64,000 nt of DNA, taken from an uncultured Clostridium sp. GTDB taxonomy: Bacteria; Bacillota; Clostridia; TANB77; CAG-508. Every line of letters starts with the position of its first letter. Positions within the stretch are counted from its first letter, which is position 1. The notes beneath the pieces were generated by a model. The model did not search any database, had not been told where the DNA came from, and worked only from the letters and a program-made list of their open reading frames with translations. The DNA is taken from positions 1,957-65,956 of the forward strand of contig USGK01000004.1 in NCBI GenBank assembly GCA_900554175.1, written 5' to 3'. Below are positions 141-15,035 of the stretch, piece by piece. The position numbers were made by a program, and so were the translations under genes.

Positions 141-503
141 CTAACTTTCATTAATTAAATTAATACAATAATTCGGATTGTTCATGTCTTCTATTTGATA
201 TTGTATTGCTTTTTGATTACATATTCTAATTATTGCAATTTTAATTAAATAATTTCTTATATTCTCTACGTTTGAAATGCTTCTATTATTAATTTCATTA
301 TTTCTAATTTGTAATGTCATATTATTAATTTTACTTATTTCTTGACTATAATGTTTATATAAAAATTCTATATAGCCAATATCTTCTTGGCAACTTCCAA
401 ACCCATAAGTACATACTCTTTGTAAATCTACTTTAATTTCATCTATTTCTCCACTACTCTTATGTTGTAAAATCTTTAATATTAAATCTTCCACACTATA
501 CAT
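141..503 (-). CDS. hypothetical protein (120 aa)
   Basis: ORF 16 nt downstream of the ATPase gene on the same strand. No recognisable motif. Confidence 0.45.
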   Translation of the reverse strand: MYSVEDLILKILQHKSSGEIDEIKVDLQRVCTYGFGSCQEDIGYIEFLYKHYSQEISKINNMTLQIRNNEINNRSISNVENIRNYLIKIAIIRICNQKAIQYQIEDMNNPNYCINLINES

Positions 504-519
504 TTATCATTTCTCCTTA

Positions 520-1800
520 CTAATGTTTCAAAGCAGTAATTGGAACTACATATACTCCATCTGGTCTTTGATAAGCAGCATTTGTTAGTCCACAAATCAC
601 ACACAAAACTGATGGTGCTTTTCCATTTTCATCTTCAATTTGTTTCTTTAAATTTAATAATTCATTTGCTGCTTTTTCAATTTGATTTGCTCCAAGTTTA
701 ATTTCAAATGCACACCACTGCCCATTTTCTAACTCTATAACACTATCAATTTCTTTATCTTGGTAATCTTGATAATGATAACATTTGGCATTAAAACTAT
801 CAGCATAAACTTTTAAATCTCTTTCTACCATTGCTTCGAATAAAAATCCAAATGTCTCTAAATCATTTATAAGTTTATTTTCTTCTTTAATATTTAATAA
901 AGAACATGCAATAGATGGATCTGCAAAATGCCTTTTTTCAGATTGTTTTACTCTTACAGAAGAACGAACGTTAGTTGAAAATGGCTCATCATTATCTAGT
1001 AAGAATAATCTATCTAATGCATTTAAATATGATGCTAATGTATCAATATCAATATCCTCATTATCTTTTTCGTTAATATCTTTCTTCAATGTCATATTCG
1101 ATACTGTTGTACTTTCGTTTCTTGCTAAGGATTTCAATAAAAGCTTAACTTTATGCTTATCTCTATTTATTCCATCTAGTCTATATAAATCATCATCAAC
1201 TATTAAATTAATATATTCTTCTATCGCTTCACTTGCATCTTTTGCAGAATAGTCTAAATTTGCTGGCCAGCCTCCTCTAATTATTAATCTTGCTAAATTT
1301 CTTAAATCTACTTCTCCAGTTGCTTTTCCTTTAAACTTATTATTACATAAATCTTCTAATGATATATCTCCTGTAGAATCTCCTGACTCATATAAACTCA
1401 TTGTTCTTAAATGTATTTTTCCATATCTTCCAGCACCGCTATGAGCTATTCCTTTCCTATTAGGAGTAGAAGAACCTGTTAAAATATATTGGCCTTTTAA
1501 ACCTGTTTTATCAACATCGATTCTAATTTCATCCCATAGATTTGTTGCTTCTTGCCATTCATCAATTAGTCTTGGTTTTTCTCCTTCCAAAACAATAGCT
1601 GGTGACATTTTTGCCAGTTCAACATTGTTTGATTGTTCTCCAGTAGTTTTATGCAATAAAATTTCACTATTAGAATGATACCTTCCAGCCCATGTTTTAC
1701 CACAATACTTTGGTCCTTCAATACTAATTGCACCAAATATTTTTAAATAGTGTTCTATTTTCTTATCAGCTATTCTCTTTCTATAATTCTCTATTTTCAT
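520..1800 (-). CDS. AAA+ ATPase of the COG1373 / DUF4143-type architecture
   Basis: 426 aa with N-terminal Walker A GPKYCGKT. The overall layout resembles the widespread ATPase+DUF4143 family, recognised from memory and not searched. Confidence 0.7.
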   Translation of the reverse strand: MKIENYRKRIADKKIEHYLKIFGAISIEGPKYCGKTWAGRYHSNSEILLHKTTGEQSNNVELAKMSPAIVLEGEKPRLIDEWQEATNLWDEIRIDVDKTGLKGQYILTGSSTPNRKGIAHSGAGRYGKIHLRTMSLYESGDSTGDISLEDLCNNKFKGKATGEVDLRNLARLIIRGGWPANLDYSAKDASEAIEEYINLIVDDDLYRLDGINRDKHKVKLLLKSLARNESTTVSNMTLKKDINEKDNEDIDIDTLASYLNALDRLFLLDNDEPFSTNVRSSVRVKQSEKRHFADPSIACSLLNIKEENKLINDLETFGFLFEAMVERDLKVYADSFNAKCYHYQDYQDKEIDSVIELENGQWCAFEIKLGANQIEKAANELLNLKKQIEDENGKAPSVLCVICGLTNAAYQRPDGVYVVPITALKH

Positions 1801-1838
1801 AGATAATCACCTCTTAAATATTAGCATTTCATAAATAT

Positions 1839-1867
1839 ATTTTACATCAATCCGTGATATTTGTCAA
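1839..1867 (-). promoter_or_regulatory. sigma-A-like promoter for the ATPase gene
   Basis: On the minus strand: TTGACA (rc of 1862-1867), 17-nt spacer, TAAAAT (rc of 1839-1844), about 40 nt upstream of the ATG at 1800. Confidence 0.5.
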
Positions 1868-1940
1868 TTTTAATCCGTGGCATTTTTTAATTTTGTTCCG
1901 TGTTTTTTTAATATTTTGTTCCGTGATTTTTATCTGTATA
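1849..1940. repeat. four tandem 23-bp direct repeats (core TCCGTG, CACGGA on the gene strand)
   Basis: TCCGTG starts at 1851, 1874, 1897 and 1920, an exact 23-bp period. The units are aatccgtgatatttgtcaatttt / aatccgtggcattttttaatttt / gttccgtgtttttttaatatttt / gttccgtgatttttatctgtata. The array overlaps the promoter above. Confidence 0.85.
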
Positions 1941-1948
1941 ATATTCTC

Positions 1949-2716
1949 TTATTCAAATATACTTTTAAATTCTAATGGAACGATATCTTCATACAATAAA
2001 ACAAATTGGTCATTTACCTGTCTATTATCATGATAATGTCCAAAATACCACTTTTTAAATTTACATTTCTCCATAATCTTTTGAAAATAGTCTGTTAAAT
2101 AATCTTTCTTATATTTTCCTGCTCCTAATATCGTTTGAATACTTGTAGGACAACAATGAGAAATTACATAGTCAACTTTATAATTCACTTTTTCTAAATT
2201 ATTTATACCATTTTGCATTTCTTCTTTAGTTGGTAATTCCAAATCCCACCATGAAAAATCTCTTATTCTAAAATATGCTTCTCTTTTTCGATATTTATAT
2301 ATTCTTTCTTCTTCGTCCAAATTTAATATTCCGTCTTGAATATCATGTGATTTAGCTCCCCCAAATGCAAAGAATTTTTTGCTATCAATATCAAAAATTT
2401 CTCCACGCATTAAATGTAAAATTGAATCTCTTATTTTATGTACTTTTCCTCCATGCCATTCTTCTACTGGATAATCATTATATAATCTTGTAAAGTTTTC
2501 ATGATTTCCATCTACAAATAAGGTGGTAAAATTCTTATTATTCAACCAGTCTAAAGCTTCTTTTTCTCTGCTACTTTCTTCTTCAAATGTCCATACTCCA
2601 CCAAAATCACCACATATTATTATATAGTCATTCTTTGTCATTTCAGCTTGTATGGGAAATTGGTCATCAGCTAATCTTGTGAAATCTGAATGGGTGTCTC
2701 CTGTTATATAAATCAT
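1949..2716 (-). CDS. metallophosphoesterase (calcineurin-like)
   Basis: Ordered motifs GDTHSD, GDFGG, GNHEN, SHCCP, GHYH. Confidence 0.85.
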   Translation of the reverse strand: MIYITGDTHSDFTRLADDQFPIQAEMTKNDYIIICGDFGGVWTFEEESSREKEALDWLNNKNFTTLFVDGNHENFTRLYNDYPVEEWHGGKVHKIRDSILHLMRGEIFDIDSKKFFAFGGAKSHDIQDGILNLDEEERIYKYRKREAYFRIRDFSWWDLELPTKEEMQNGINNLEKVNYKVDYVISHCCPTSIQTILGAGKYKKDYLTDYFQKIMEKCKFKKWYFGHYHDNRQVNDQFVLLYEDIVPLEFKSIFE

Positions 2717-2730
2717 GCTTACCTCCTCTA

Positions 2731-3819
2731 TTATTTCTTTTCTTTCACCTTTTTCAATAATTCTTTTAAGCTAATTGGTTTAAAACCAATTACATCTACT
2801 GAAACATTAATATGTAATTTTTCAGAATATAAATCTTCTGGATATTCCATTTCATTTGTTTCAGGATTTATTTTATGTAATGGATTATTATGAATATGTC
2901 CATGAACATTCACATATCCTTTAGGTATTTCTGTATCTTTTAAAGGCTTATGAGATAATATTAATTTTTCATTATTTAATTTTAATGGATTCTCAGGTAT
3001 AAATCCAAATCCTACATTTCTGAAAAATTCTTTAGATTTTTTATCATGATTTCCTCTTATTAAAAACTTTTTACCTTTTAATTTTGGTATTAATTCTTTC
3101 ATATCACTTTCGCTTGTTAATGCTACATCTCCTAAATGGAAAACTGTATCAAAGTCGGTAACTGTATTATTCCAATTTTCAATCAAAACTCTATTCATTT
3201 CTTCTACATCTTTAAATGGTCTATTGCAATATTTAATAATATTTTTATGATTGAAATGTGTATCTGATATAAAATATGTTTTTGCATTTTTTAATCCCTT
3301 ATAATATTCAAATATATCTGTGATTTCTTTTCCTCCAAAATACCTTTTATAATCATCTTTTTCGTTTTCTTTCCACCACTCAAATTTTTCTTTAATTTTA
3401 TTTCTTATTTCTCTAGTGTCTATATCCGAATTTTCCTCAATTGCAAATAAAACATCTATGTTATCACTTCCACAAATTATAAAATCATAATTTCTTATTT
3501 CATCATATCCATATTTATCTTTTACTTTTTCTATTTTTTTATCATAAGAAATGTATAAATAATCATCTTTAAATAAATGATTTTCTTTAATATATGTATA
3601 ATATAAATCTTTTACACCTGAAGTTTTTACAAATCCTGTCATATACCATATTGTTCTGCTTCGGATCTCTGTATAATCTTTTGGTAAATCTTCTTTTTTA
3701 ATTTTAGTATGATATCTTCCTTTTGAATATAGAAATTCGTTTTCAGTATCAAGTGTATTTCTCCAATTCTTTCTATCAAATTTACCTTTTGTATACCAAT
3801 TAGATTTTATTCTTGCCAT
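2731..3819 (-). CDS. two-domain protein: unknown N-terminal ~190 aa plus C-terminal metallophosphoesterase
   Basis: The C-terminal half carries SDTHFNH, LGD, GNHD and HGHIH. The N-terminal half has no recognisable motif. It lies 14 nt upstream of the next phosphoesterase gene. Confidence 0.8.
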   Translation of the reverse strand: MARIKSNWYTKGKFDRKNWRNTLDTENEFLYSKGRYHTKIKKEDLPKDYTEIRSRTIWYMTGFVKTSGVKDLYYTYIKENHLFKDDYLYISYDKKIEKVKDKYGYDEIRNYDFIICGSDNIDVLFAIEENSDIDTREIRNKIKEKFEWWKENEKDDYKRYFGGKEITDIFEYYKGLKNAKTYFISDTHFNHKNIIKYCNRPFKDVEEMNRVLIENWNNTVTDFDTVFHLGDVALTSESDMKELIPKLKGKKFLIRGNHDKKSKEFFRNVGFGFIPENPLKLNNEKLILSHKPLKDTEIPKGYVNVHGHIHNNPLHKINPETNEMEYPEDLYSEKLHINVSVDVIGFKPISLKELLKKVKEKK

Positions 3820-3926
3820 ATCATTCTTCCCCCTTCGGATTATTTATGTTTGTTTTTCGATATTATTATGTTTATTTTTTGAACATTGTATTGTAAAATA
3901 TTAGGCAGATTTCTCTGCCTTAAATA

Positions 3927-4238
3927 TTATTTTTCTTCTAACTTCCTTTTAAATTCAATAAATTCTAACACTTCTTTTTGTGATTTATTAGATAATTCAT
4001 CAAATGTTCTTGAAAACTTTGCAATTCTTTTTTCTCTATCCTCCCCTGTATATAATTCTTCCATAGATAATCCATATATCTTTGAAAAGAAATATAATTC
4101 CTCTGCTGTAATTTTTCTTGTTCCATTTTCAATATTTGTTATAACCAAACGTCTTACTCCTAGCATTCCAGCTAATTCTTCTTGTGTAAACCTTGTTTTT
4201 TCTCTTATTTTTTTTAATCTTCTACCTAAATTTTCCAT
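3927..4238 (-). CDS. XRE-family HTH transcriptional regulator
   Basis: N-terminal LKKIREKTRFTQEELAGMLGVRRLVITNIENGTRKITAEEL is a typical Cro/C1 HTH. Confidence 0.85.
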   Translation of the reverse strand: MENLGRRLKKIREKTRFTQEELAGMLGVRRLVITNIENGTRKITAEELYFFSKIYGLSMEELYTGEDREKRIAKFSRTFDELSNKSQKEVLEFIEFKRKLEEK

Positions 4239-4353: not shown

Positions 4354-5385
4354 TCAATGTACACACTCTTTTGCATTAATATCAAAAATTCTACACCCGC
4401 CATGACAAATATTAAAATAATTACATTTATTGCAATTATTATTATTTATCTTTTCTCTAATTACTCTAAATTCTTTACCGTCTCTCCAAACATCTTCAAT
4501 ATTCCTTTTATGTAGATCTTCCCCTTTAATTTTATTAATCATAAAAGAACATGGATACATCTTCATTTCCTCTGAAATAAATGCTGAAAATCTGCCTGCT
4601 TCACAAAAATCTACACTTTCTACATTTAAATCATTAATTTCTTTTACTAAGAAAGAAATTGCACAACTATCAAATCCTACTTTAAAAGGTAATGTTTTAT
4701 GATTTATTATATGAAAAAAATCACTTAATTTTTCAGTATTTTTTAAATTATATATATCATATTCTTTTTGTGGTTTATAATTCAGAAAAATTATTGCATT
4801 AATACCTTCAATTTCTTGTGGTAATTCATCTAATATTTTAATAGCTTTATCAATAGTTTTAGAGTTCAATATAAAATGTATATTTGTTTTTATTTTATTA
4901 TTAATAAGTTTCCTTATAGCTTTGAATGATTCCGTATATGGTTCATATAAACTTACTGCAACAGCACCACAAAATTCTTGACTTGCTTTTAGTACTTCTT
5001 CTGTTAACCCTCTTCCATTTGTTGTATATGATGGAATAATTCCAAACTCACGAGTTATTTTTACTAATTCTATAAAATTAGGATGTTGATTAGGATTTCC
5101 TCCTCCAAGAGCTACTTGCATAACTCCTAAGTCGCTTGCCTGTTTTATAATATTTTTATAATTCTCTATACTCATATGCTTGCCATTTACATTTGATTTT
5201 CTATAGCAAAAATCGCAGTTGTTTTCGCAATAATTTGTTATAGATATATCAAGCAATTCTGGACCTTCTAATCTCATAAATGGATCTATTCCATCATATC
5301 CATTTCTCATCATAAAACCATTTTTCTTATTAAAGATACAATAATATTTACTTTTCTTATTATTCTTTATTATATATCTGTTCAT
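4354..5385 (-). CDS. radical SAM enzyme with C-terminal SPASM/twitch-like Cys cluster
   Basis: CX3CX2C (ITNYCENNCDFCY) near residue 50, plus a C-terminal Cys-rich CNKCNYFNICHGGC. Confidence 0.85.
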   Translation of the reverse strand: MNRYIIKNNKKSKYYCIFNKKNGFMMRNGYDGIDPFMRLEGPELLDISITNYCENNCDFCYRKSNVNGKHMSIENYKNIIKQASDLGVMQVALGGGNPNQHPNFIELVKITREFGIIPSYTTNGRGLTEEVLKASQEFCGAVAVSLYEPYTESFKAIRKLINNKIKTNIHFILNSKTIDKAIKILDELPQEIEGINAIIFLNYKPQKEYDIYNLKNTEKLSDFFHIINHKTLPFKVGFDSCAISFLVKEINDLNVESVDFCEAGRFSAFISEEMKMYPCSFMINKIKGEDLHKRNIEDVWRDGKEFRVIREKINNNNCNKCNYFNICHGGCRIFDINAKECVH

Positions 5386-5802
5386 TAAATTTCACCTATT
5401 TCTCCATTCAGATAAAAATCATCTTCTACTATTAAAAAACTTTCCATACTAAAAAAAGCTTCTGTTTCTGTTCCTCCATTATCTGTACTCAAATTTCCCC
5501 AATATACATGATGTCCGTTTTTTTATATGTTCTTCTACTTTTTTTATTGTATCTTCCTCAAAATGTTCACTTTCTAAAAATTCTCTAATACTTTTTCCTT
5601 TTCCATATCTTTTAACATACTCAACTAAGTCTTCTTTAGCTTCATCTATAGCTTTAAATAATTCATCAAATATAAAATTTAATTTTGAATTACCTTGCAC
5701 CCCTATTTTATTCATAAATAACTTCTTTGAAAGTTCATCTTTAGATGCCAGTATAAAAGATGTTGAAGAACTATTAGTTACAAAATCTGTTTTTATTTTC
5801 AT
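5385..5802 (-). CDS. hypothetical protein, 107 aa in the zero frame, 138 aa if a +1 shift occurs at in-frame CGG (rc of 5515-5517)
   Basis: N-terminus MKIKTDFVTNSSSTSFI. Skipping the C of CGG continues as GHHVYWGNLSTDNGGTETEAFFSMESFLIVEDDFYLNGEIGEI. That reading ends at a TAA (5385-5387) overlapping the radical-SAM ATG (TAATG). Confidence 0.5.
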
Positions 5803-6212
5803 TTATCTAACCTCGCTATCAATATATTAAAATTCTTTATTAAATTTTCGTCATACTTAAAATAATAAGAAATGTTATAACTATTACTGTCTATATTCAA
5901 TTTGTATAAACTATAATCTTCATTACAATGTTTTATTAATCTCTTTATCTCATTATTATTTAACAACTCTTTATTATATAAATATTTTTCAAAACTTTCA
6001 TATTCCTGCATATAATACTTTGTATACATTTCTTTCATATCAACATAACCTGTAAATACACAATTATAAATTTTCTTTAAATATTTTTCTGCAAATGAAT
6101 TTTCTCTTACTTTAGATAATTTTAAAAATCTTTCTAAATATGTATTAAAATCAATATTATTAGGAGCTATACAATAAAAATCTTCACCAATTTTAATAAT
6201 CTTCATTGCCAT
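5799..6212 (-). CDS. hypothetical protein (137 aa, Tyr/Asn-rich)
   Basis: Its start overlaps the end of the protease-NTPase gene by 20 nt. Its stop overlaps the next start (ATGA). No motif recognised. Confidence 0.55.
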   Translation of the reverse strand: MAMKIIKIGEDFYCIAPNNIDFNTYLERFLKLSKVRENSFAEKYLKKIYNCVFTGYVDMKEMYTKYYMQEYESFEKYLYNKELLNNNEIKRLIKHCNEDYSLYKLNIDSNSYNISYYFKYDENLIKNFNILIARLDK

Positions 6213-8997
6213 CCTCCTTTTTCTTTAAATATTTTAATAATTCTTCTGAAATAGTATTTTTTTCTATTTTTGTATTGTTTTTATTATAAATCATTTGTAT
6301 TTTATCTTTAATCTCTTTCTTTTGTATTATATTTCTAGAAATTATATGATTCACAATATCCTTTATATTTTTATTAACTTCTTCTGGTACATTATTATTC
6401 ATCTCATCTAACGTTTCAATTGCCATATCTGGTAAATATTTTATATAAAGTTCCCAAAATTCATCTGTCTTCCATCTAATCACATTATATAAATAAATAG
6501 TTATCTTAAATAATTCTTTATAAATTCTCGAATTTTTTCTTCTCAGTGTGGATTTTAAGTTTTCAATCATTTTGTCATATGGCCATATTGCCTTAATGCC
6601 ATAACTATAATAATTATTAGAAAAATCTGGTTGAAATTTTGTTCTTATAAAGCTCTGGTATTTTTCATAATCTTTTTTACAAAATGAATCCATTATATTA
6701 TATAAATTTTTTATATTTAATTTTTTAAAATAAGAGATATCATATCTAAAAATTAAATCTAATATGATTTCATCCCTATTTTCACCATCATTTAAAAATT
6801 CATTTTTTATTATTCCAATATCTTCATCACTTATCTTTTCGTCAACTAAGTTAAATATATTATCCCAATAAACTATATTATAATCATCACTTGTTTTTAA
6901 TATTTCAACTAAGTCTTCACTATACATTCTTCCGATAAAGAACAAATAACCATATACACCTTCTTTAATGCTAACATTGGACTTTTTATTTAAATCTTTG
7001 ATAAATTTTTCTATCTGCTCTTTGTTAAACTTTCTTGCTATATACTTAGCCATATAAAAATCCCTAAATTCATCAAATGTGAAACTAATAACCGTTTTCT
7101 GTTCATTCAAAAAACCTTCTTTTATGATTATATCATCTTTTAAAACAACATCATTTAATATTAATTCATGCACTAATTCCAACTCTTCACTATTTAGAAT
7201 ATCTATAGGTATATTATAATACTGGCAATTATTAATCATATAATCTATTATTTTATCCAAAACATTAATATATAATTTTCCTGCTCCAAATTTTTTATTA
7301 TCATATTCCTCTATTTTCTTATCAATATACATTTGAAATGTATTGTACTTATAGATATCATACATATATAGCTGTTTTTTTCCTCTATTAGCTTCGCAAA
7401 AAAATCTTAACAGCAATGTGTCTCTAGATAATCTATCAAAAATATTTTTAGATAAGCTATACTTTCTTATTGTTATATCAAAAAAATTCAAATATCCCCA
7501 AAATATTCTGTCTTGAAAGACTTGGTTATAATTAAACATTTTAACTCTTTTAAAATACTTAGAATATATTCCTGTATCTATATTTTTAAATTTTTCATCA
7601 TAAAATTCACCTCTTGTTGTCATAATAACCTTTATAAAATTAAATCCATCAATTCTTTCTAAAAATCGCCTTACTACATTAGAAAAATCATCAAATTTAT
7701 TGTTTTCATTTAAACCATCTATTACTATTACAAATGGTTTAAATGTTTTTTCATATTCCTGTTTTAGCATATCTAAAATATATTCTATATTTTTATTATT
7801 TAAAAAACTAATAATTTTATCGCATACAAATTCATATAAATCTTTATCTACTTCATAAGCATTTATGTATAATACATAAAAATTCTTTTTTAATAAAAAA
7901 TTTTTTGTAAAGTCACAAATAAAATTAGTTTTACCTTGTCCTGCTCCATTTGTAAGAATCAAATATCTGTACCTTATATATTCTATATTTTCTTGAATAT
8001 CACTAAAATCAAATTGTAAAGCTCTATTGTAATAATCTCTTGTTTCTCTATCATAAAGATCCAATCCACTCTCTAATAGCTCTTTCATTTGATTTTTATC
8101 TTCGATAAGTTTTCTAGCTTTTTTAAGATCTTCTGATAATTCTTCTGAAGCCTTTAATAGTTCTTCATCATTTTCTATTTTATCTGTAATTCTAAAATTA
8201 ATAGTATCGCTAAAATTTTTCTTTAAAAACTCATTAACATCCTTATAATTCAATGATTGTATTTCATCTATTGCTTTATTTATAAACAATTTTGGCTCTG
8301 AAAAAAATCTCATATATTCTTTAAAATTATTTTGCTCTACAAATATTTCTGGAATATATTTACCACTTTTTATATTCTTTTGTATTTGTTGCTTTGTATA
8401 TATATCCATTTTTTGTTTAAAACTTTTTTTTATTCTATTAGATTCAATATATCTTTCATTAATGTATTGTACAAATGACGATACACTAGATACTTTAATT
8501 TCACTTGCCCTATCTGCTGAAATTCTTTGTTCTTGTACAATTCCTATTATCATTTCATCTACAATTACTGGTGAACCTGACAAACCTTTGTAGTTTATTG
8601 CTTGTCCAACACTTATATTAGATGCCTGCATATCAGAAATTCTTTCTTCTTCAATTATACTATGAGTTCCTATACCTTTAATATAATGCATTATCTGTTC
8701 TTTAGTTATATATCCATATATTTCCCATTTATCATCTTCATTTGGAGTATAATCTTGAGTCAATAAATGATTAATGTTCTCATTAACTGGCCTTTCTAGT
8801 TTTAAAAGTCCTATAATTTCATTGTCGTTATTTGGATATTCTTTAGCTTTCAAAATGTCCCCATTATGTAATTCAATTTTATATTCTTCTTGATGCATTA
8901 AATGACTTGCTGTTAATATTAAATCATTATCTATTAAAATCCCTGTTCCTACATCACTGGTTCCAATTATTTTTACTATATACTTAGGAAATTCCAT
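6193..8997 (-). CDS. trypsin-like serine protease fused to a NACHT/STAND-type P-loop NTPase with a long helical C-terminal region
   Basis: The N-terminus has S1-like catalytic contexts TASHL (His) and GLSGSPV (Ser). The centre has Walker A GAGQGKT and a NACHT-like Walker B FVIVIDGLNE. About 450 aa of helical tail follow. Confidence 0.8.
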   Translation of the reverse strand: MEFPKYIVKIIGTSDVGTGILIDNDLILTASHLMHQEEYKIELHNGDILKAKEYPNNDNEIIGLLKLERPVNENINHLLTQDYTPNEDDKWEIYGYITKEQIMHYIKGIGTHSIIEEERISDMQASNISVGQAINYKGLSGSPVIVDEMIIGIVQEQRISADRASEIKVSSVSSFVQYINERYIESNRIKKSFKQKMDIYTKQQIQKNIKSGKYIPEIFVEQNNFKEYMRFFSEPKLFINKAIDEIQSLNYKDVNEFLKKNFSDTINFRITDKIENDEELLKASEELSEDLKKARKLIEDKNQMKELLESGLDLYDRETRDYYNRALQFDFSDIQENIEYIRYRYLILTNGAGQGKTNFICDFTKNFLLKKNFYVLYINAYEVDKDLYEFVCDKIISFLNNKNIEYILDMLKQEYEKTFKPFVIVIDGLNENNKFDDFSNVVRRFLERIDGFNFIKVIMTTRGEFYDEKFKNIDTGIYSKYFKRVKMFNYNQVFQDRIFWGYLNFFDITIRKYSLSKNIFDRLSRDTLLLRFFCEANRGKKQLYMYDIYKYNTFQMYIDKKIEEYDNKKFGAGKLYINVLDKIIDYMINNCQYYNIPIDILNSEELELVHELILNDVVLKDDIIIKEGFLNEQKTVISFTFDEFRDFYMAKYIARKFNKEQIEKFIKDLNKKSNVSIKEGVYGYLFFIGRMYSEDLVEILKTSDDYNIVYWDNIFNLVDEKISDEDIGIIKNEFLNDGENRDEIILDLIFRYDISYFKKLNIKNLYNIMDSFCKKDYEKYQSFIRTKFQPDFSNNYYSYGIKAIWPYDKMIENLKSTLRRKNSRIYKELFKITIYLYNVIRWKTDEFWELYIKYLPDMAIETLDEMNNNVPEEVNKNIKDIVNHIISRNIIQKKEIKDKIQMIYNKNNTKIEKNTISEELLKYLKKKEDGNEDY

Positions 8998-9009
8998 ACA
9001 TTTCTCCTT

Positions 9010-10173
9010 TTAAATTATTAATTCGTTACTAATAATACATTCATAATTATATTTATTTTTTTCTTCTTCTTCTTTTAGTATTCGTATATTATCTATGTCA
9101 TAATTAAAAATAAGTTTTTTATTATTTTTATTATTTATTATAATATCAGCTAATATGCTTTTGTCTGGATGTCCATATTTTTTTCCATCTGTAGATATGA
9201 TATAATTACTAGCAATAATATTTTCCATTATTTCACGATTATTCCAATAACTTCCGTGATGAGGAATTTTTAGAATGTCAACCTTAAGTATTTTCTCAAT
9301 GTTATGCTTTTTTTCAAAATATAAATCTCCTGTAAATACCATTTTAATATCATTAAATTTTATTAGGATACCTATTGATACATCGTTAACTATAGAATAT
9401 ATACGTTTTTTATGATTAAGCTTTAACCAGTTTATAATATCTCTGTCTATCTGATCAGATATTGTTTCTGTAGTTTCAATACATTCTTCATTATTTAACA
9501 TCAACGTTTCAAAAAAATCTATAAATTTTTCACTTTTATTAATCTCATAGTCTTTTCCAAATAATACTTCTAATTGTTTCTCTAGATATTTGGTATATCT
9601 TTCTATTTTTAATTTACTTGGTGAAATTACATCTATAATGGCATTTCCCATCTTTATATTTTCAGTTTGTACTACTATGTTATCTATAAACTGTATATTT
9701 ATTGGATAATTTAACTTATTACAAATATATTCAAAAGATTTTAAGTCATTTGCACTTACATAATTGTTGTCTTCATCAAAAGAATCCATTTCATTATATG
9801 CTTTTATTATTCGCATTTTTTTTAATTGTCTTTGATTTATATTATTAGATAACTTCTTTTGAAAAACTAAATTTTTAAAGCCATTAAACCATATATTTTC
9901 AATTTTTATAATATTTGGATTATTATAATCACCATTTTCTTCTAGCAACCTTTTTGCTCCACCAATATGATCCTTATCAATATGAGTTATTACTAATAAA
10001 GTAATCTTTTTTCCTATTTTTTTCAATTCTATAAGTAATGGCTTTAAATAATTATAATACGTTTCTTTAAATCCTGTATCAATTAATATACATTCATTAT
10101 TATTAAATTCAATTAAAAAACAATCCCCTGCATTCGCTGGTAAAATATGAATTTTAGCATTCCAATCTGCCAT
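9010..10173 (-). CDS. MBL-fold metallo-hydrolase (ComEC-type beta-lactamase fold)
   Basis: ITHIDKDHIGGA is an HxDxDH variant of HxHxDH. A C-terminal PHHGS and GHPD are also present. The gene ends 12 nt before the protease-NTPase start. Confidence 0.8.
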   Translation of the reverse strand: MADWNAKIHILPANAGDCFLIEFNNNECILIDTGFKETYYNYLKPLLIELKKIGKKITLLVITHIDKDHIGGAKRLLEENGDYNNPNIIKIENIWFNGFKNLVFQKKLSNNINQRQLKKMRIIKAYNEMDSFDEDNNYVSANDLKSFEYICNKLNYPINIQFIDNIVVQTENIKMGNAIIDVISPSKLKIERYTKYLEKQLEVLFGKDYEINKSEKFIDFFETLMLNNEECIETTETISDQIDRDIINWLKLNHKKRIYSIVNDVSIGILIKFNDIKMVFTGDLYFEKKHNIEKILKVDILKIPHHGSYWNNREIMENIIASNYIISTDGKKYGHPDKSILADIIINNKNNKKLIFNYDIDNIRILKEEEEKNKYNYECIISNELII

Positions 10174-10234: not shown

Positions 10235-11371
10235 TTATTTTTCATGACTTTTAAAATAATTATAAGCTTTAACTAGACAATATAATTCTCTAATGTTCGA
10301 AATATTAGCATTAAAAGGTTTAATTCTATCACTAAAATGATTAATCAATATCATTTCCATATCTTCATTATTCCAATACTCATATAATTTAGTATAATAG
10401 TAACTTGAATTTTTAGTAAAATATTCTACTTTACTATCTATAATATTTTCAACCTCATTTATGTTTTCTACTTTTTCAGGATTTTGTAACGCATTATATA
10501 AATATGGTATTTGATTAATTAATACATTTTTAAACTTTTCATACAATTTCCTATTTTGTTTATCTGTTATTTTTGTATTTAATAACATTTTTACATCTTT
10601 TATTGCAACATTATATCTACCATTTAATCTTTTTTCATCTTCTTTTATTAAAACATTTAATTGTTTAATAGGCTTATCTATTTTTTGTATTTTTATTTTC
10701 GATAATTCTTTTTTATATGCATTGATCATTACTAAAAAATCATTATAAATATTATCTAAATAATTAATACATTTATCCAAGTACTTTTCTATATCTTTAA
10801 AGCTAAATCCGAATTCGAGTTGCTCCCATGATTTTTTCTTATCTTTTTTCCATAGCAATGTATAATAATCCCAATTTTTTACTTTTCCATAAAGTTTATC
10901 AGGCAAAGAATTATATGGAGTTGGATAAGTTGAAACAATAAATTCATTATTATCTTTAAGCTTTGTTGGATGTGCTCCAAAAATAGCTCTAATATTTTTA
11001 AAGTGCTCCCAATCATCCTTTTCTTTATCTTTAAAAATTTCACTACTTTTATAAAACAGTCTAGCTTTTTCATTATCTTTCGCTATTTTGTTAATATCGT
11101 TTATTCCTTCAATAACTATATCAACCGATGAAAGAAATAAATAAACTTCTCCCCAATTATAATCTTCTTTATTTTCTTTTAACAAATTCTCACTATTTAG
11201 ATAACTCTCAACTGTTCTAAACCAGTGTACTGCTGAACAAATAATATTCCATTTGTCATCAGAGTATTTTTTATCGAGCACTAATAAAATATCATCTTGT
11301 TTTTCACCATTAATAAATTCACTTAAGCAATTTAGTTTTCTTAATCTTTCCTCATACTTCATTTGGCACAC
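10235..11371 (-). CDS. hypothetical helical protein (378 aa), possible HEPN-like Rx5H motif
   Basis: NIRAIFGAHPT fits Rx4-6H. No other motif recognised. Its start overlaps the upstream gene by 20 nt. Confidence 0.5.
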   Translation of the reverse strand: MCQMKYEERLRKLNCLSEFINGEKQDDILLVLDKKYSDDKWNIICSAVHWFRTVESYLNSENLLKENKEDYNWGEVYLFLSSVDIVIEGINDINKIAKDNEKARLFYKSSEIFKDKEKDDWEHFKNIRAIFGAHPTKLKDNNEFIVSTYPTPYNSLPDKLYGKVKNWDYYTLLWKKDKKKSWEQLEFGFSFKDIEKYLDKCINYLDNIYNDFLVMINAYKKELSKIKIQKIDKPIKQLNVLIKEDEKRLNGRYNVAIKDVKMLLNTKITDKQNRKLYEKFKNVLINQIPYLYNALQNPEKVENINEVENIIDSKVEYFTKNSSYYYTKLYEYWNNEDMEMILINHFSDRIKPFNANISNIRELYCLVKAYNYFKSHEK

Positions 11372-12341
11372 ACCCTTGTTTTAAAAAACTTTCTAAAAAT
11401 TCAATAACAGCAACTGGATTTTCTTTTATAATCTTATCCAATTTTTTCATTTCTTCTTGAAGTTGTTTTAAATCATTATTACTTTGTTTAATATAATCCT
11501 TATTTATATCTTCATATAGTAAACCACTATACCTACTTAAGTATTCTTTTGTATATTTTTCTCTATTAATATCTGATATTAAAATATACCATCCTACAAA
11601 CATATACTCATATCCAATTGAATTACAATCATCATTAGTAATATACTTTAAACAACAATTCAATAAAACTTCTAAAAAGTACATATTTTGTTTGGCTATC
11701 ATTAAAAATAAATCCTCATCATTATTCAAAGTACCTTCAACCATTTCATTTACAACTAAAGTACTGTGTGTAAATAAACATAACTTATCATAATACTCAT
11801 CTAACAACTTCTGAATCTGCCTATTACTCATATCTCCAAACATGTCTTTATCTATCATTTTTAATTTTGCTTTAAAAAGATTTCTAAGTTTTTGCTGTTT
11901 AGTATAAAATCTATCTTCATCTCTCAATCCTAATTTTTTAAATTCTTCATATACGTTAGAATCTAAATATATCATCATTCCCATAACAAGATTTTCAAAA
12001 GCAGATCTTATTAATGTGTTTGAATCTACTAGACTATTATTTTTAACTAATTTTTGCACATTCTTTATAGTCATGTATGATTGATTTAACAAATTACAAC
12101 TTTCTTTAGGCAAGTTCTTATCATCCATTAAATATAATTTTTTAATATTTTTACTAGTACTTCTTCTTAAAGGAACTATGCATTTGCTTTTACAAAGATT
12201 TCTAAAAATTTTCTTTAATTCAATTAATCGATCTTTAGTTAAAAATTCCAATAGTTTATATAATTTTTCTTCCCTATTTTCAGTACCAAGTGTATTTAAA
12301 ATATCTTCTGCTGTTATATCTATTTCATTATCTTTTCTCAA
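11352..12341 (-). CDS. hypothetical helical protein (329 aa)
   Basis: TTG start with AAGGAG 8 nt upstream. No firm motif (IRSAFENLV ... LCLFTHST). First gene after the res terminator-like hairpin. Confidence 0.5.
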   Translation of the reverse strand: MRKDNEIDITAEDILNTLGTENREEKLYKLLEFLTKDRLIELKKIFRNLCKSKCIVPLRRSTSKNIKKLYLMDDKNLPKESCNLLNQSYMTIKNVQKLVKNNSLVDSNTLIRSAFENLVMGMMIYLDSNVYEEFKKLGLRDEDRFYTKQQKLRNLFKAKLKMIDKDMFGDMSNRQIQKLLDEYYDKLCLFTHSTLVVNEMVEGTLNNDEDLFLMIAKQNMYFLEVLLNCCLKYITNDDCNSIGYEYMFVGWYILISDINREKYTKEYLSRYSGLLYEDINKDYIKQSNNDLKQLQEEMKKLDKIIKENPVAVIEFLESFLKQGCVPNEV

Positions 12342-12414: not shown

Positions 12415-15030
12415 TTATAAATTACTAATCCACTTATCTATTGCTTCTCCAAATTCTTTTCTACGATACTCCTCATTGTAAAATGGCAATCCTATTATCT
12501 TATATTCGTTTCCATAATCAAACATTGGATTAGTATATGCATTTTCTTCCATTTCTAACATAAACTCCTCTTTCCATTTATCTTCTTCTAACAGATTATT
12601 TCCTTTAGGCTCAGCATATATTTGATGTGTAATATAATTATCGTTTGTTTTCTTCCTAACAAATAATAAGAAATCTGGTTCAAATCTTTCACCATGTTCA
12701 AAACTGTATATTGCTAAATCTGAAATTCTTTCATTTCTTACTATATAATATTCTAATCCTTTTTCTTTCAATTTTGGTTCAATGTCAGTTTTAAAATATT
12801 TTATAAATAGTTTTTCTTCACTTGTACCATAATTATCATTAAATACATACCATGGTTCATTTGTTAGATCAAGTTTGTACTCTGTATTTCTGCAATTATT
12901 TTGGGAGTCACCTTTTCCACCATTTTCATCTATTTTTGATAAGTATATCACCTTATCCTTTAGCACTGCTTTAAGTTGCATTGGTTCAAATTGTTTAGTG
13001 CCTTCAAATTCCTGCTTAATTGATGTCACATGATTTGAAATATTATTGAAAGCTCTTATACAAGCATTTCTCAAATCTTTTCCCTTAATATCATTTAAAT
13101 ATGTAATTTCAATAACTGAATTTCCAAGATATTCGTCAGATGTTAAGAATTCTTTCATTGTCTTAACATTAGGGTATTTACTTTTTATAACATTGAATTT
13201 TAACTCATTATATCTTTCTGCAGCCCCAATCAAAATATTATAATCGATATCTTTAAACTTAAATGTACTAATTTTGCTTTCAATATTTAATTCATTATTT
13301 ATGTTTTCTCCCATTAAAGCAAACACGTTTCCCTGATTTGATTTTACGGTATATCTATATACCTTATTTTTTATACTATCCTCAATGTCAATAACATCTT
13401 TTCTGTCCTTAGGAATACGTTTATTGGCATATACTAATGCTTTATTATAAAATTGTGATTCTTTAAATTCTTCCTTCAATTTATATTCTAGCTTTATTGG
13501 ATCCTTATCTTGTAACCCTGTTTGTATTAATGCTTGTCTTAATTCTGCTATATATTTAGAATCATTTCTACTGTGGAAAAACATAGTTTCTAATATTCTC
13601 AATTCATTTGATAAATCATTATCATATTTTCTTTTATATTTTTCTTGTTCTTCGTTTATTTTAAAAGGACAATATCTTGCCCCACGTCCTATTAGCTGTG
13701 CTTCTTTTATTGTGTAATTTCCAATTTTACCAGCAGTTCCACTTCCTTGTCTGGTATCATATAGTCTAACAATATCAAACAAATTTAAAACATCCCAACC
13801 TTCATTAAGCATATCTACAGTAAATATAACACGTATTGGATTATCTTTATCTTCCAAGGAATTAACTAATAATTGTTTTTCTCTATTATTATCCGTAGTT
13901 TCATTCATGATTATTGCTGTTTCTTTTGTAAATGAATTTTGTATACTATGTTCTAATAATTCAAATGTCGAATCTTTACTTTTAAAATAATCTAAAGCTT
14001 TATTTAATATTTCAATATTGGAATTGTATAAATTCATTAATTCATAGCTATTTAATTTTTCCAAATTATTAAAGAAAACATCATAGAATTCTTTTGATTC
14101 TTTTATTTTTTGAGATTTTAACATTACTACAGGTTTCAAATTAATCTTATTATCATTGAAAAGATATTTTCTATATTCGCTTAATACGAGAGCCATTAAT
14201 GTTCTATCCCACAATTCACTTTCTGTAGCAAAGTTTTGAAAATCCTTAGTATATCCACTTTCTCTAAAATTCTTTAATGGATAATTATAAATTATTTTAT
14301 CCCTATATTTGACTTCAACATTTCTATCCTTTAAATCAGCTGTTGCTGTGAATTCAAGCATTATACTATCTCTATTTTGAGCTAGTGCATTTGTAACAGA
14401 ATATTCCCAACTATTTCTTTCGTTTTCTTCTGTTTTGGTTTCTTTTTTGGTAAGCGTATTTATATGATGACTTTCATCTGAAATAAATACTATTTTATTA
14501 TCCTCAAAATCTTTATATGTAAGTGCATTTTCTCTAGCTGTGAATAAATCCAAATGTAATTTCTGTGTTGTTGTAAAACAAATTTGTATATCCTCTTCTA
14601 ATGGATCTACACTAAAATTTTCTACTTTTTTTATTTTTATTTTATTTCCTAAATAACTAATCTCCTCTGAAAAAAGATATTTGCTAGATGCTGTATCTGT
14701 AAAGTTATCTATTGTTTTTTCTACAACATTAGATTGATTTACAAAGAAAAGAAACTTTCTATATCCTTTTGTATATAAATAAAGCATTAATCCTGCCATA
14801 ATAACAGTTTTTCCACTTCCTGTTGCCATATGAAAAAGAGTATGTTTTTGCTTGTTCTTATGAATATTTTCATTTTCAAAATAAGTTACAAAATATTTAA
14901 GTGCAGAAATTTGATAATCACGTAAAACTATATTATCAGATAATCCCTCGTTTATTATAGTTGGCAATTCATTAAGCATTCCCATTTCTTCTAATACTTC
15001 TATTGTTTCATATAAATATTTATTTTCCAT
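12415..15030 (-). CDS. res: Type III restriction enzyme Res subunit (SF2 helicase plus C-terminal PD-(D/E)xK)
   Basis: Walker A MATGSGKT, DEAH-type box ISDESHH, and a C-terminal EPDF...AEPKG nuclease-like motif. It starts 5 nt after mod. Confidence 0.9.
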   Translation of the reverse strand: MENKYLYETIEVLEEMGMLNELPTIINEGLSDNIVLRDYQISALKYFVTYFENENIHKNKQKHTLFHMATGSGKTVIMAGLMLYLYTKGYRKFLFFVNQSNVVEKTIDNFTDTASSKYLFSEEISYLGNKIKIKKVENFSVDPLEEDIQICFTTTQKLHLDLFTARENALTYKDFEDNKIVFISDESHHINTLTKKETKTEENERNSWEYSVTNALAQNRDSIMLEFTATADLKDRNVEVKYRDKIIYNYPLKNFRESGYTKDFQNFATESELWDRTLMALVLSEYRKYLFNDNKINLKPVVMLKSQKIKESKEFYDVFFNNLEKLNSYELMNLYNSNIEILNKALDYFKSKDSTFELLEHSIQNSFTKETAIIMNETTDNNREKQLLVNSLEDKDNPIRVIFTVDMLNEGWDVLNLFDIVRLYDTRQGSGTAGKIGNYTIKEAQLIGRGARYCPFKINEEQEKYKRKYDNDLSNELRILETMFFHSRNDSKYIAELRQALIQTGLQDKDPIKLEYKLKEEFKESQFYNKALVYANKRIPKDRKDVIDIEDSIKNKVYRYTVKSNQGNVFALMGENINNELNIESKISTFKFKDIDYNILIGAAERYNELKFNVIKSKYPNVKTMKEFLTSDEYLGNSVIEITYLNDIKGKDLRNACIRAFNNISNHVTSIKQEFEGTKQFEPMQLKAVLKDKVIYLSKIDENGGKGDSQNNCRNTEYKLDLTNEPWYVFNDNYGTSEEKLFIKYFKTDIEPKLKEKGLEYYIVRNERISDLAIYSFEHGERFEPDFLLFVRKKTNDNYITHQIYAEPKGNNLLEEDKWKEEFMLEMEENAYTNPMFDYGNEYKIIGLPFYNEEYRRKEFGEAIDKWISNL

Positions 15031-15035
15031 ATCAT

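Follow-up and report, generated by a model that had tools for sequence, protein, structure and literature searches.

Two kinds of described anti-phage system come closest to the five-gene cassette reported here, which lies on the minus strand of a 64,000-nucleotide stretch (the window) of a genome assembled from an uncultured Clostridium sp. (GenBank assembly GCA_900554175.1, contig USGK01000004.1, positions 1,957 to 65,956 of the forward strand). The first is the KpAvs2 operon, which encodes Avs2, an Mrr nuclease-STAND (signal transduction ATPase with numerous domains) protein of 1352 amino acids (aa), together with Avap1, a radical S-adenosylmethionine (SAM) protein, and Avap2 (Bechon et al. 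2024, PMC11564622). Avap2, a small protein linked to DUF6375 by HHpred, is present in ∼5% of the Avs2 homologues; KpAvs2 defence depends on it, and its binding site is the helical bundle located between effector and NTPase. Avap1 is needed against some phages, no viperin-type nucleotides were detected for it, and its model contains no NTP pocket (PMC11564622).

The second kind comprises the modules in which the gene of a metallo-β-lactamase (MBL)-fold protein lies directly upstream of a gene for a trypsin-sensor fusion, i.e., Avs1a/Avs1b, VcAvs2, Hachiman HamMAB, Lamassu and DRT. In such modules the MBL is a DNase in an autoinhibited form, its active site occluded by two loops, and the fused trypsin-like protease cuts both loops after the sensor has oligomerised. 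This mechanism has been shown by experiment for Hachiman, AVAST and Avs2, and among these reports is one in which the protease of an Avs2-trypsin protein acts as a C4 tetramer (PMC12799240, PMC12642450, 10.1101/2025.09.03.673762, 10.64898/2026.08.25.746987). The experiments on activation of the MBL pro-nuclease by a fused protease date from 2025. Cleavage sites have been mapped in the characterised MBLs HamM (I118/I218) and EpiAvs1a (I134/I234). As many as 29 STAND families are fused to the trypsin-MBL module (PMC12642450).

The cassette in the window shares with the KpAvs2 operon an Avs2-type NTPase, a radical-SAM protein, a small protein, an exchangeable effector and a conserved helical bundle in front of the NTPase. 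Unlike that operon, it encodes two paralogous small proteins, its effector is a trypsin-fold protease with an MBL instead of Mrr, and it lacks the distal C-terminal domain which in KpAvs2 binds Ksap1 or terminase. With the trypsin-MBL modules it has in common the position of the MBL gene directly upstream of the trypsin-sensor fusion, the ComEC-like metal residues and two insertions in the MBL core, and an invariant Ser and His in the protease. It differs from these modules in that the acid of the triad is shifted and variable, in the length of the sensor protein (934 aa, whereas the Avs2 and Avs1b models of PADLOC/NCBIfam have ∼1,500–1,900), and in the presence of three further conserved genes, which are not mentioned in the four reports cited above. 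Taken with the evidence presented below, these comparisons make it likely that the cassette is an abortive-infection anti-phage system of the Avs kind, combining a STAND switch, a protease-activated MBL DNase and an accessory trio.

The five-gene cassette and its STAND protein

Five minus-strand open reading frames (ORFs) follow each other head to tail across 4354-10173:

9010-10173, minus strand: MBL-fold hydrolase, ORF of 387 aa
6193-8997, minus strand: protease-STAND protein, ORF of 934 aa, with a trypsin-fold protease, an Avs2-like STAND NTPase and a short helical C-terminal domain
5799-6212, minus strand: small protein A, ORF of 137 aa
5385-5802, minus strand: small protein B, frameshifted; the called ORF, 5479-5802, has 107 aa
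4354-5385, minus strand: radical-SAM/SPASM enzyme, 343 aa

The gap between the end of the MBL ORF and the start of the protease-STAND ORF on the same strand is 12 nucleotides (nt), the ORF of small A overlaps the protease-STAND ORF by 20 nt, and the ORF of small B overlaps that of small A by 4 nt. A first-pass annotation of the window recorded the 934-aa protein, the MBL 12 nt upstream and the 137-aa gene overlapping the NTPase stop, all of which are present on the minus strand, but missed the second small gene and the radical-SAM/SPASM gene. Because these two genes belong to the same conserved cassette, the functional unit consists of five genes and not three, and the coordinates 5799-10173 cut it short. 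The motifs that the annotation pointed out (TASHL, GLSGSPV, GAGQGKT and DGLNE in the 934-aa protein, HxDxDH in the MBL) are located where it placed them, and are conserved in homologues rather than due to chance.

In the confident AlphaFold2 model of the 934-aa protein (pLDDT 86.5, pTM 0.75) a β-barrel protease (residues 1-185) is followed by a helical bundle (188-340), an α/β NTPase (to ∼657) and an all-helical C-terminal domain. The domains and the NTPase motifs are encoded as follows:

8443-8997, minus strand: protease domain, residues 1-185, supported by Pfam Trypsin, PADLOC Avs1b and Foldseek
7978-8442, minus strand: bundle of helices separating effector from NTPase, residues 186-340 (188-339 in the model)
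7027-7977, minus strand: NTPase core with helical and winged-helix domains, residues 341-657
7927-7947, minus strand: Walker A motif GAGQGKT, residues 351-357, with Lys356
7705-7734, minus strand: Walker B motif VIVIDGLNE, residues 422-431, with Asp427 and Glu431
6196-7026, minus strand: all-helical C-terminal domain, residues 658-934 (helices 659-926 in the model)

All the features that define the STAND superfamily are present, i.e., the Walker A and Walker B motifs, a sensor-1 Arg, and helical and winged-helix domains; the latter two are located at residues 517-655 in the model, and the order of strands and helices is as expected for a STAND protein. Residues Gly353, Gly355, Lys356, Thr357, Asp427, Asn430, Glu431 and the sensor-1-like Arg462 are invariant in 25 homologues (≥26% identity), and the NTPase residues (GAGQGKT, VIVIDGLNE, TTR462) are still invariant across 101 sequences. 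The PADLOC model of Avs2 (PDLC02164) matches residues 239-670 with an E-value of 9e-17, the alignments stopping near position 670 of the 1504 positions of the profile. A single-sequence phmmer search of the 934-aa protein against the Protein Data Bank (PDB) retrieved nothing; a profile of the homologues was needed, which finds the solved Avs2 structure 9o4e with an E-value of 6e-12. The window protein does not match Pfam NACHT (PF05729) at E≤0.01, and among the 25 homologues NACHT is matched by eight (best E-value 7e-10) and nSTAND3 by 11. The first-pass description of a NACHT/STAND NTPase thus stands in its second half, as the PADLOC and NCBIfam Avs2 models, structure 9o4e and the matches of the homologues to NACHT and nSTAND3 all place the domain within the STAND families. 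Its first half is loose, since the window protein reaches no Pfam NTPase model, and on these profile matches the protein is best named Avs2-like STAND.

The NTPase is the most conserved part of the 934-aa protein and the C-terminal domain the least: among relatives with ∼30–38% overall identity, the regional identity is 0.42 for the former and 0.26 for the latter. The C-terminal helical domain is a putative sensor, and is much shorter than the Avs2 sensor. In the helical bundle preceding the NTPase, residues K213, Y214, K226 and R230 are invariant across all effector classes (101 sequences), and the alignment with the Avs2 profile begins in it. These invariant residues, together with the binding of Avap2 to the equivalent bundle of KpAvs2, make the bundle (186-340) a candidate for the site at which the small proteins dock.

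Searching 5.8 billion proteins yields 144 homologues of the 934-aa protein, mostly of 910–985 aa; the few with a named source are from the Clostridia (Clostridium botulinum, [Clostridium] sordellii, Acetobacterium, and metagenome-assembled genomes (MAGs) of Eubacteriales and Clostridia). A full HMMER search over 1.84 billion cluster representatives finds 520 clusters at E≤1e-3, of which 207 at E≤1e-30. Gene order was compared on the contigs encoding seven homologues at 26–84% identity. The order MBL, protease-STAND, small A, small B, radical-SAM recurs in C. botulinum, C. sordellii and several MAGs, with different flanking genes each time, also at only 26–38% identity. In these relatives small A measures 133–142 aa, small B 132–139 aa and the radical-SAM/SPASM enzyme 339–353 aa, and the neighbours include a type I restriction-modification (R-M) system, a ResIII/Eco57I-domain protein (restriction-modification-like) and GmrSD. 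Farther from the window protein, relatives of its NTPase keep the trio of downstream genes without protease or MBL, as a PNP_UDP_1-STAND protein and an 846-aa STAND protein do. On plasmids of Agrobacterium, Rhizobium and Rhodobacter the trio accompanies a SMEK-STAND protein, and its radical-SAM enzyme is 45–47% identical to the clostridial one; a tblastn search of small B against plasmids found this cassette only.

A profile of small B was used to scan one genome per species, which gave 234 genomes; the best 80 loci were analysed, and all their ORFs were scored with hidden Markov models built from our alignments. The 80 loci span Clostridia, Negativicutes, Bacteroidota, Cyanobacteria, Nitrospirota, Desulfobacterota, Alpha- and Gammaproteobacteria, Spirochaetia and Anaerolineae, and, among the archaea, Methanosarcina, Methanomicrobiales and Micrarchaeota. 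The genes for the STAND protein and small A lie directly upstream of small B in 65 of the 71 loci with enough upstream DNA, and the radical-SAM gene lies directly downstream of it in 74 of the 77 loci with enough downstream DNA. The gene order is invariable in this set, and the ORFs abut or overlap. Trypsin and MBL are present in only 15 of the 80 loci. The N-terminal modules of the STAND proteins fall into at least 16 unrelated groups, including SMEK_N, which matches an Argonaute-associated restriction endonuclease model (17 loci), trypsin (14 loci), a nucleoside-deoxyribosyltransferase/TIR-like (Nuc_deoxyrib_tr-like) module (11 loci), PNP_UDP_1, DUF4062, a lipase-like α/β hydrolase, a transglutaminase-like module and transmembrane helices. 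Seven STAND proteins of other effector classes match only Avs2 models (PADLOC, E-values of 1e-19 to 1e-35). It is evident that the conserved core consists of the Avs2-like NTPase, small A, small B and the radical-SAM enzyme, with the effector as a swappable cartridge. Such swapping of N-terminal modules is a hallmark of an immune sensor with exchangeable effectors.

The protease and its MBL partner

The N-terminal domain of the 934-aa protein matches Pfam Trypsin (E-value 9e-6) and, over residues 7-207, PADLOC Avs1b (E-value 2e-14). In a Foldseek search with the full-length model the top 50 matches cover the protease domain only, with DegS, HtrA1 and trypsin as the top matches, while the family profile finds the HtrA, DegS, V8 and Spl proteases in the PDB, after Avs2 (9o4e). 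The TASHL motif contains His32 (nt 8902-8904) and the GLSGSPV motif Ser140 (nt 8578-8580), and both residues are invariant in the 25 homologues, down to 26% identity. The first-pass annotation held the catalytic contexts of the protease to be apparently intact. For His32 and Ser140 the alignment of homologues bears this out; the third member of the triad is non-canonical (Ile61). Judged from the alignments, the triad appears to consist of Ser and His with a shifted, poorly conserved acid.

The MBL matches Pfam Lactamase_B (E-value 3.6e-14) and the PADLOC models LmuA (3e-66), Avs1a (8.5e-53) and RTasMBL, a reverse transcriptase (RT)-associated MBL (5e-39). Its HIDKDH motif corresponds to His64/Asp66/Asp68/His69, and residues H64, D66, D68, H69, D283, H305, H306 and H335 of the metal site are invariant in an alignment of seven cassette MBLs. 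The HxDxDH sequence was noted earlier as a variant of the metal motif; the motif is indeed there, but as it is invariant in seven out of seven cassette MBLs, it is the norm for these MBLs rather than an isolated deviation. The closest solved relative is ComEC. Two variable insertions are found at approximately residues 99-139 and 225-262, and Ile122/Ile123 in the first and Ile238 in the second are candidate cleavage sites. By analogy with the characterised proteins, the MBL is predicted to be a gated pro-nuclease of the Avs1a/LmuA/HamM type. The earlier suggestion that it is a nuclease partner is backed by experiments on the homologous modules (PMC12799240, PMC12642450, 10.1101/2025.09.03.673762).

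The same annotation took the protease for the effector. Read in this way, the protease would be the terminal effector, acting on host or phage proteins, and the MBL would be either a second effector in its own right or a housekeeping hydrolase placed next to it by chance. Protease-only effectors do occur in other STAND and CHAT systems, and the invariance of the catalytic Ser and His agrees with such a role as well. This reading is nevertheless quite unlikely in view of the distribution and kinship of the MBL. The MBL gene is present in 15 out of 15 clear trypsin loci and is absent from the SMEK, PNP, TIR-like and other effector classes, bar one ambiguous locus. In L085 a divergent trypsin domain, recognized by Pfam Trypsin_2 but not by our trypsin profile, is preceded by an ORF that the MBL profile matches, and a weak match to the trypsin profile occurs without an MBL in L051. 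Moreover, the MBL belongs to the Avs1a/LmuA/RT-associated MBL family (E-values of 1e-39 to 1e-66), and in members of that family the MBL is the sole protease substrate identified, toxicity being due to the DNase (PMC12799240, PMC12642450). By analogy with these modules, activation is probably the part of the protease and killing that of the MBL, and the view of the protease as effector is probably wrong in detail.

The small proteins and the radical-SAM enzyme

Small A and small B are related to each other with an hhalign probability of 97% (E-value 5e-11), and on this profile comparison they are paralogues, small A being without the N-terminal motif of small B. That motif, MKI(K/R)xDF(V/I)TNSSSTSF, is near-invariant in small B, as is the Trp that forms its last residue. 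Neither the 791 homologues of small B nor the 66 of small A are annotated with a Pfam family. Small A matches no Pfam, NCBIfam or PADLOC family, and searches of Pfam, NCBIfam, PADLOC and PHROGs with the two small proteins gave no DUF6375, PqqD/RRE (RiPP recognition element; RiPP, ribosomally synthesised and post-translationally modified peptide) or other family. The sole PHROGs match is that of the N-terminus of phage relatives of small B to phrog_7397 (function unknown). As regards Avs1c, the third component of AVAST type 1, neither small protein gave a match in NCBIfam or PADLOC, libraries in which the presence of an Avs1c model is unconfirmed. In the model of small B, which is confident overall (pLDDT 80.7), the first ten residues, which are the most conserved, have values below 50.

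In the window small B is interrupted by a +1 frameshift at the A7 run 5518-5524, which makes the called ORF end after 107 aa. The last 45 codons run on in the +1 frame as far as a TAA that overlaps the ATG of the radical-SAM gene at 5385, and deletion of one A restores a 138-aa small B that aligns end to end with the family. The frameshift is also present in L008-L011, L020 and L021; the loci that share it include independent assemblies whose STAND proteins are 84% identical and two further species-level genomes. Small B is intact in a lineage at 70% identity (L012/L019). The frameshift is therefore real and inherited, and not an assembly error. It may reflect decay passed on by descent, a shortening that is tolerated, or a switch that depends on slippage. 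That the locus in this genome is a decaying, non-functional copy is suggested by the frameshift itself and by the Ile that replaces the near-invariant C-terminal Trp of small B in the closest intact lineage (L012/L019). Against such decay, the remaining four ORFs are undamaged and retain every catalytic residue, the frameshift persists in the relatives, the out-of-frame tail remains open up to the start codon of the radical-SAM gene with three of the six substitutions being synonymous, and the 107-aa product retains the conserved N-terminal motif. On balance a non-functional copy is somewhat unlikely.

Two relatives of the NTPase are considerably longer, and have a different set of small genes:

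L178, 624-6103: 1345-aa relative with an HNH-like N-terminus
L180, 4352-8810: 1426-aa relative, followed by a small-B-type gene with a small-A-like centre, inside which the contig ends

In L178 the STAND gene is followed directly by that of a single 140-aa protein, which matches the profiles of both small B (2e-38) and small A (1e-27), and then by a radical-SAM gene of the same subfamily (8e-136). Both loci thus share the layout of KpAvs2, with a nuclease-STAND protein, a single small protein and, where the contig reaches, a radical-SAM gene. Short forms of the STAND protein (815–1074 aa) are always accompanied by two small genes and long forms by one; with only two long examples, duplication of the small protein may be linked with loss of the distal sensor. 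The cassette parallels the KpAvs2/Avap1/Avap2 operon and is probably homologous to it, the trio being set beside Avap1 and Avap2 by description and layout. Given the layout of L178 and L180 and the paralogy of the two small proteins, we read the family in the window as a compact branch of the Avs2 lineage that bears Avap proteins, one that has duplicated its small protein and shed the distal sensor.

The last gene of the cassette encodes a radical-SAM enzyme (Pfam Radical_SAM, E-value 2e-17) with a SPASM domain (24 bits, above the cutoff of 21.5) that also exceeds the cutoff of TIGR04085 (40.5 bits against 27). It contains a CxxxCxxC motif (C53/C57/C60) and seven SPASM cysteines (C261, C279, C318, C321, C327, C331 and C341, with CX2CX5CX3C at 318-331). 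The best named relatives in NCBIfam are peptide maturases, with MftC first and PqqE among the others, all far below their cutoffs. One might suppose that the enzyme makes a small antiviral molecule and so serves as a second, chemical effector like viperin, as there are weak matches to PADLOC pVip and NCBIfam viperin. The pVip matches span the radical-SAM core alone (residues 48-184), and the viperin equivalog NF038283 is not reached, with 43 bits against a cutoff of 180. In addition, the full seven-cysteine SPASM domain is typical of enzymes that modify peptides or proteins, Avap1 gave no viperin-type nucleotides and has no NTP pocket in its model (PMC11564622), and the tandem arrays of small-B-like genes in viruses, described below, point to protein substrates. 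A viperin-like role is thus highly improbable.

Searching the viral contigs of IMG/VR with the small-B pattern gave 108 relatives, from which 78 loci were kept. Three of these carry the full STAND cassette. In 44 others an enzyme of the same radical-SAM subfamily (E-values of 1e-27 to 1e-91, and ∼1e-65 or better where the gene is complete) is encoded next to one to six tandem small-B-like genes, with a median gap of 16 nt between the enzyme and the nearest of these genes (e.g., L113, 4919-8339; L103, 2587-6303; L121, 1320-6363). Neither a STAND gene nor small A is found in any of these 44 loci. Many of them, among L101-L174, are on contigs of 100–500 kb. The viral small-B-like proteins start with MKI(K/R)xDF(V/I)TNSSS(S/T)SF, and several end in an aromatic residue. 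A similar layout, with small-B-like and radical-SAM genes and often several tandem ORFs of 140–160 aa, is observed in Deltaproteobacteria MAGs (L053, L059, L079, L089 and L094), in which no STAND gene or small A was detected.

Arrays of proteins with a terminal motif in common, encoded after an enzyme, are what marks a multi-substrate maturase, and these loci are our main reason to suggest that the radical-SAM enzyme and small B are an enzyme-substrate pair. The enzyme resembles those of the MftC/MftA/MftB and PqqE/PqqA/PqqD systems and anSME in having CxxxCxxC and a seven-cysteine SPASM domain and in being encoded beside small proteins with a terminal motif. The viral arrays, with up to six putative substrates, resemble multi-precursor RiPP clusters, and the C-terminal aromatic residue of small B recalls the C-terminal Tyr of MftA. 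Unlike the substrates of the Mft and Pqq maturases, the putative substrates are folded proteins of 100–230 aa and not short peptides, and no RRE/PqqD domain is detected. It is a tentative proposal, for which we claim a modest chance, that the radical-SAM enzyme modifies small B, that modified small B and small A form a built-in co-sensor or brake of the NLR-like (nucleotide-binding leucine-rich repeat-like) receptor, and that the phage arrays are the source of the module or act as decoys or triggers in an arms race with it.

The two small genes and the radical-SAM gene might instead be a separate, phage-derived module for RiPP-like or protein maturation without a part in defence signalling. 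The pair of radical-SAM and small-B-like genes does indeed occur alone in the 44 viral loci and in a few bacterial loci without STAND, and the kinship of the enzyme with MftC and PqqE would suit such a module. This is unlikely nonetheless, because the 65 of 71 loci mentioned above, from many bacterial phyla and some archaea, preserve both the gene order and the overlap with the STAND gene while flanks and effectors change, because stop and start codons overlap, and because the analogous Avap2 binds KpAvs2 and is required for its defence (PMC11564622).

More distant radical-SAM genes were set aside as not belonging to the same module. An enzyme from an E. coli plasmid (26% identity) has no STAND gene nearby, and enzymes of T4-like phages (27–30% identity), e.g., that of Lw1, are excluded as well, no small-B gene being located near it in Lw1. 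The Lw1 protein, gp161 of this Escherichia phage (L177; Straboviridae/T4-like), scores 2e-52 against the profile of the cassette enzyme. Distant radical-SAM/SPASM proteins of the Lw1 type are also present in 168 other phage records, at 27–30% identity to the cassette enzyme; the hosts are mostly Klebsiella, Enterobacter, Cronobacter, Citrobacter and Escherichia, and the genomes measure ∼140–260 kb, mostly ∼175 kb.

Proposed mechanism and genomic setting

Starting from the gene order, domain identities, conserved catalytic residues, family relationships and co-occurrence statistics observed in this family, we infer oligomerisation, MBL cleavage and DNase activity by analogy with the characterised modules. 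In the proposed mechanism the 934-aa protein would serve as sensor and switch, and would be a monomer at rest. A phage-derived signal would be sensed, probably via the variable helical C-terminal domain and/or the small proteins, upon which the Avs2-like NTPase would bind ATP and oligomerise. The oligomer would bring the N-terminal trypsin-fold domains together and thereby activate them, allowing the protease to cut the two loops that occlude the MBL active site. The cut MBL would be a non-specific DNase, which destroys phage and host DNA. The three downstream genes would form a conserved accessory module that is tied to the NTPase and not to the effector. In this module the radical-SAM/SPASM enzyme may modify small B post-translationally, at the N-terminal NSSS motif or the C-terminal aromatic residue, and small A and small B may dock on the bundle preceding the NTPase and set the threshold or specificity, as Avap2 would for KpAvs2.

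A number of observations speak against this interpretation. Both effector proteins remain far below the equivalog cutoffs of AVAST type 1, the MBL with 244 bits for NCBIfam Avs1a (cutoff 420) and the protease-STAND protein with 43.8 bits for NCBIfam Avs1b (cutoff 1500), in an alignment limited to the protease domain. With 31 bits against a cutoff of 1000 for NCBIfam Avs2 (NF041813), the latter also falls short of a full-length Avs2 equivalog, which measures ∼1,300–1,500 aa in total, and it is without the long C-terminal Avs2 sensor that binds terminase or Ksap1. The canonical Asp of the triad is absent, Ile61 aligning with the catalytic Asp of the solved proteases Jep and Rv3671c, and at the preceding position, that of Glu60, only 46 of 82 relatives with a protease (56%) have an acidic residue, Asp or Glu; protease activity is therefore not assured. 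The cleavage sites in the MBL are guessed solely from loop position. As to the accessory genes, one relative (L003) has no radical-SAM gene, and the model of small B has no structural neighbour in the PDB, no Foldseek match being better than an E-value of 2. In contrast to Avap2, small A and small B show no similarity to DUF6375 (PF19902), which was unmatched by 60 small-B and 9 small-A sequences in hmmscan to an E-value of 10 and is absent from the precomputed Pfam hits of the 791 and 66 homologues; the published link of Avap2 was obtained with HHpred. Finally, with its small B frameshifted, the cassette copy in the window may be impaired.

The cassette is located between a complete type III R-M system and a group of helix-turn-helix (HTH), metallophosphoesterase and ATPase genes (141-4238). 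The neighbouring features are:

17129-18511, minus strand: MobA/VirD2-type relaxase
12415-16781, minus strand: complete type III R-M system, with mod at 15036-16781 and res at 12415-15030
10235-12341, minus strand: overlapping ORFs of 378 aa and 329 aa, located after the type III R-M genes and before that of the MBL
3927-4238, minus strand: XRE-type HTH gene
2731-3819 and 1949-2716, minus strand: two calcineurin-like metallophosphoesterases
520-1800, minus strand: AAA_14/DUF4143 ATPase

The HTH gene, the two metallophosphoesterases and the AAA_14/DUF4143 ATPase may be further cargo of a defence island. The relaxase gene adjoins the defence genes, and on a matching metagenome contig (L011) the opposite end of the island carries a TnpV gene; relaxase and TnpV together suggest a mobilisable or integrative element. 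The remainder of the window encodes, among others, GerA, a dockerin protein, FeoB and an FtsX-type permease. The cassette is part of what is probably a mobilisable defence island in the low-GC chromosome of a spore-forming member of the Clostridia. The window is very AT-rich (GC 21–29%), and a promoter scan, with 79 promoter-like matches against 80 expected, is uninformative in such DNA; the sole terminator-like hairpin lies at 3920-3903, downstream of the HTH gene.

The 329-aa product has a weak match to DUF5677 and the 378-aa product is without a family assignment. Their genes were rejected as parts of the system, since only the closest relatives (L008-L011) have them beside the cassette, and L001, L004, L005, L006 and L012 lack them; L003, with an unannotated 361-aa gene upstream of its MBL, was left out of this comparison. 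The pair may be a separate, uncharacterised two-gene defence candidate.

By itself, the pair of protease-STAND protein and MBL is an ordinary, previously unannotated member of a characterised anti-phage effector logic. What is new is the five-gene unit, with its four-gene Avs2-like core and effector, its wide distribution, and the link to a viral module of radical-SAM enzyme and small proteins. The accessory module is ancient, being spread over many bacterial phyla and some archaea, and follows the NTPase whatever the effector. The compact natural variants described here, of ∼0.85–1 kb-protein, offer themselves for structural work, and pose the question how an Avs2-like protein without the usual distal sensor recognises infection. 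The role of Avap1 and Avap2 in Avs2 immunity is an open question (PMC11564622), for which the accessory module provides a testable enzyme-substrate hypothesis. If the whole proposal of a modified small B as co-sensor or brake holds, it would connect radical-SAM protein maturation with STAND/NLR immunity for the first time, and would account for Avap1 and Avap2.

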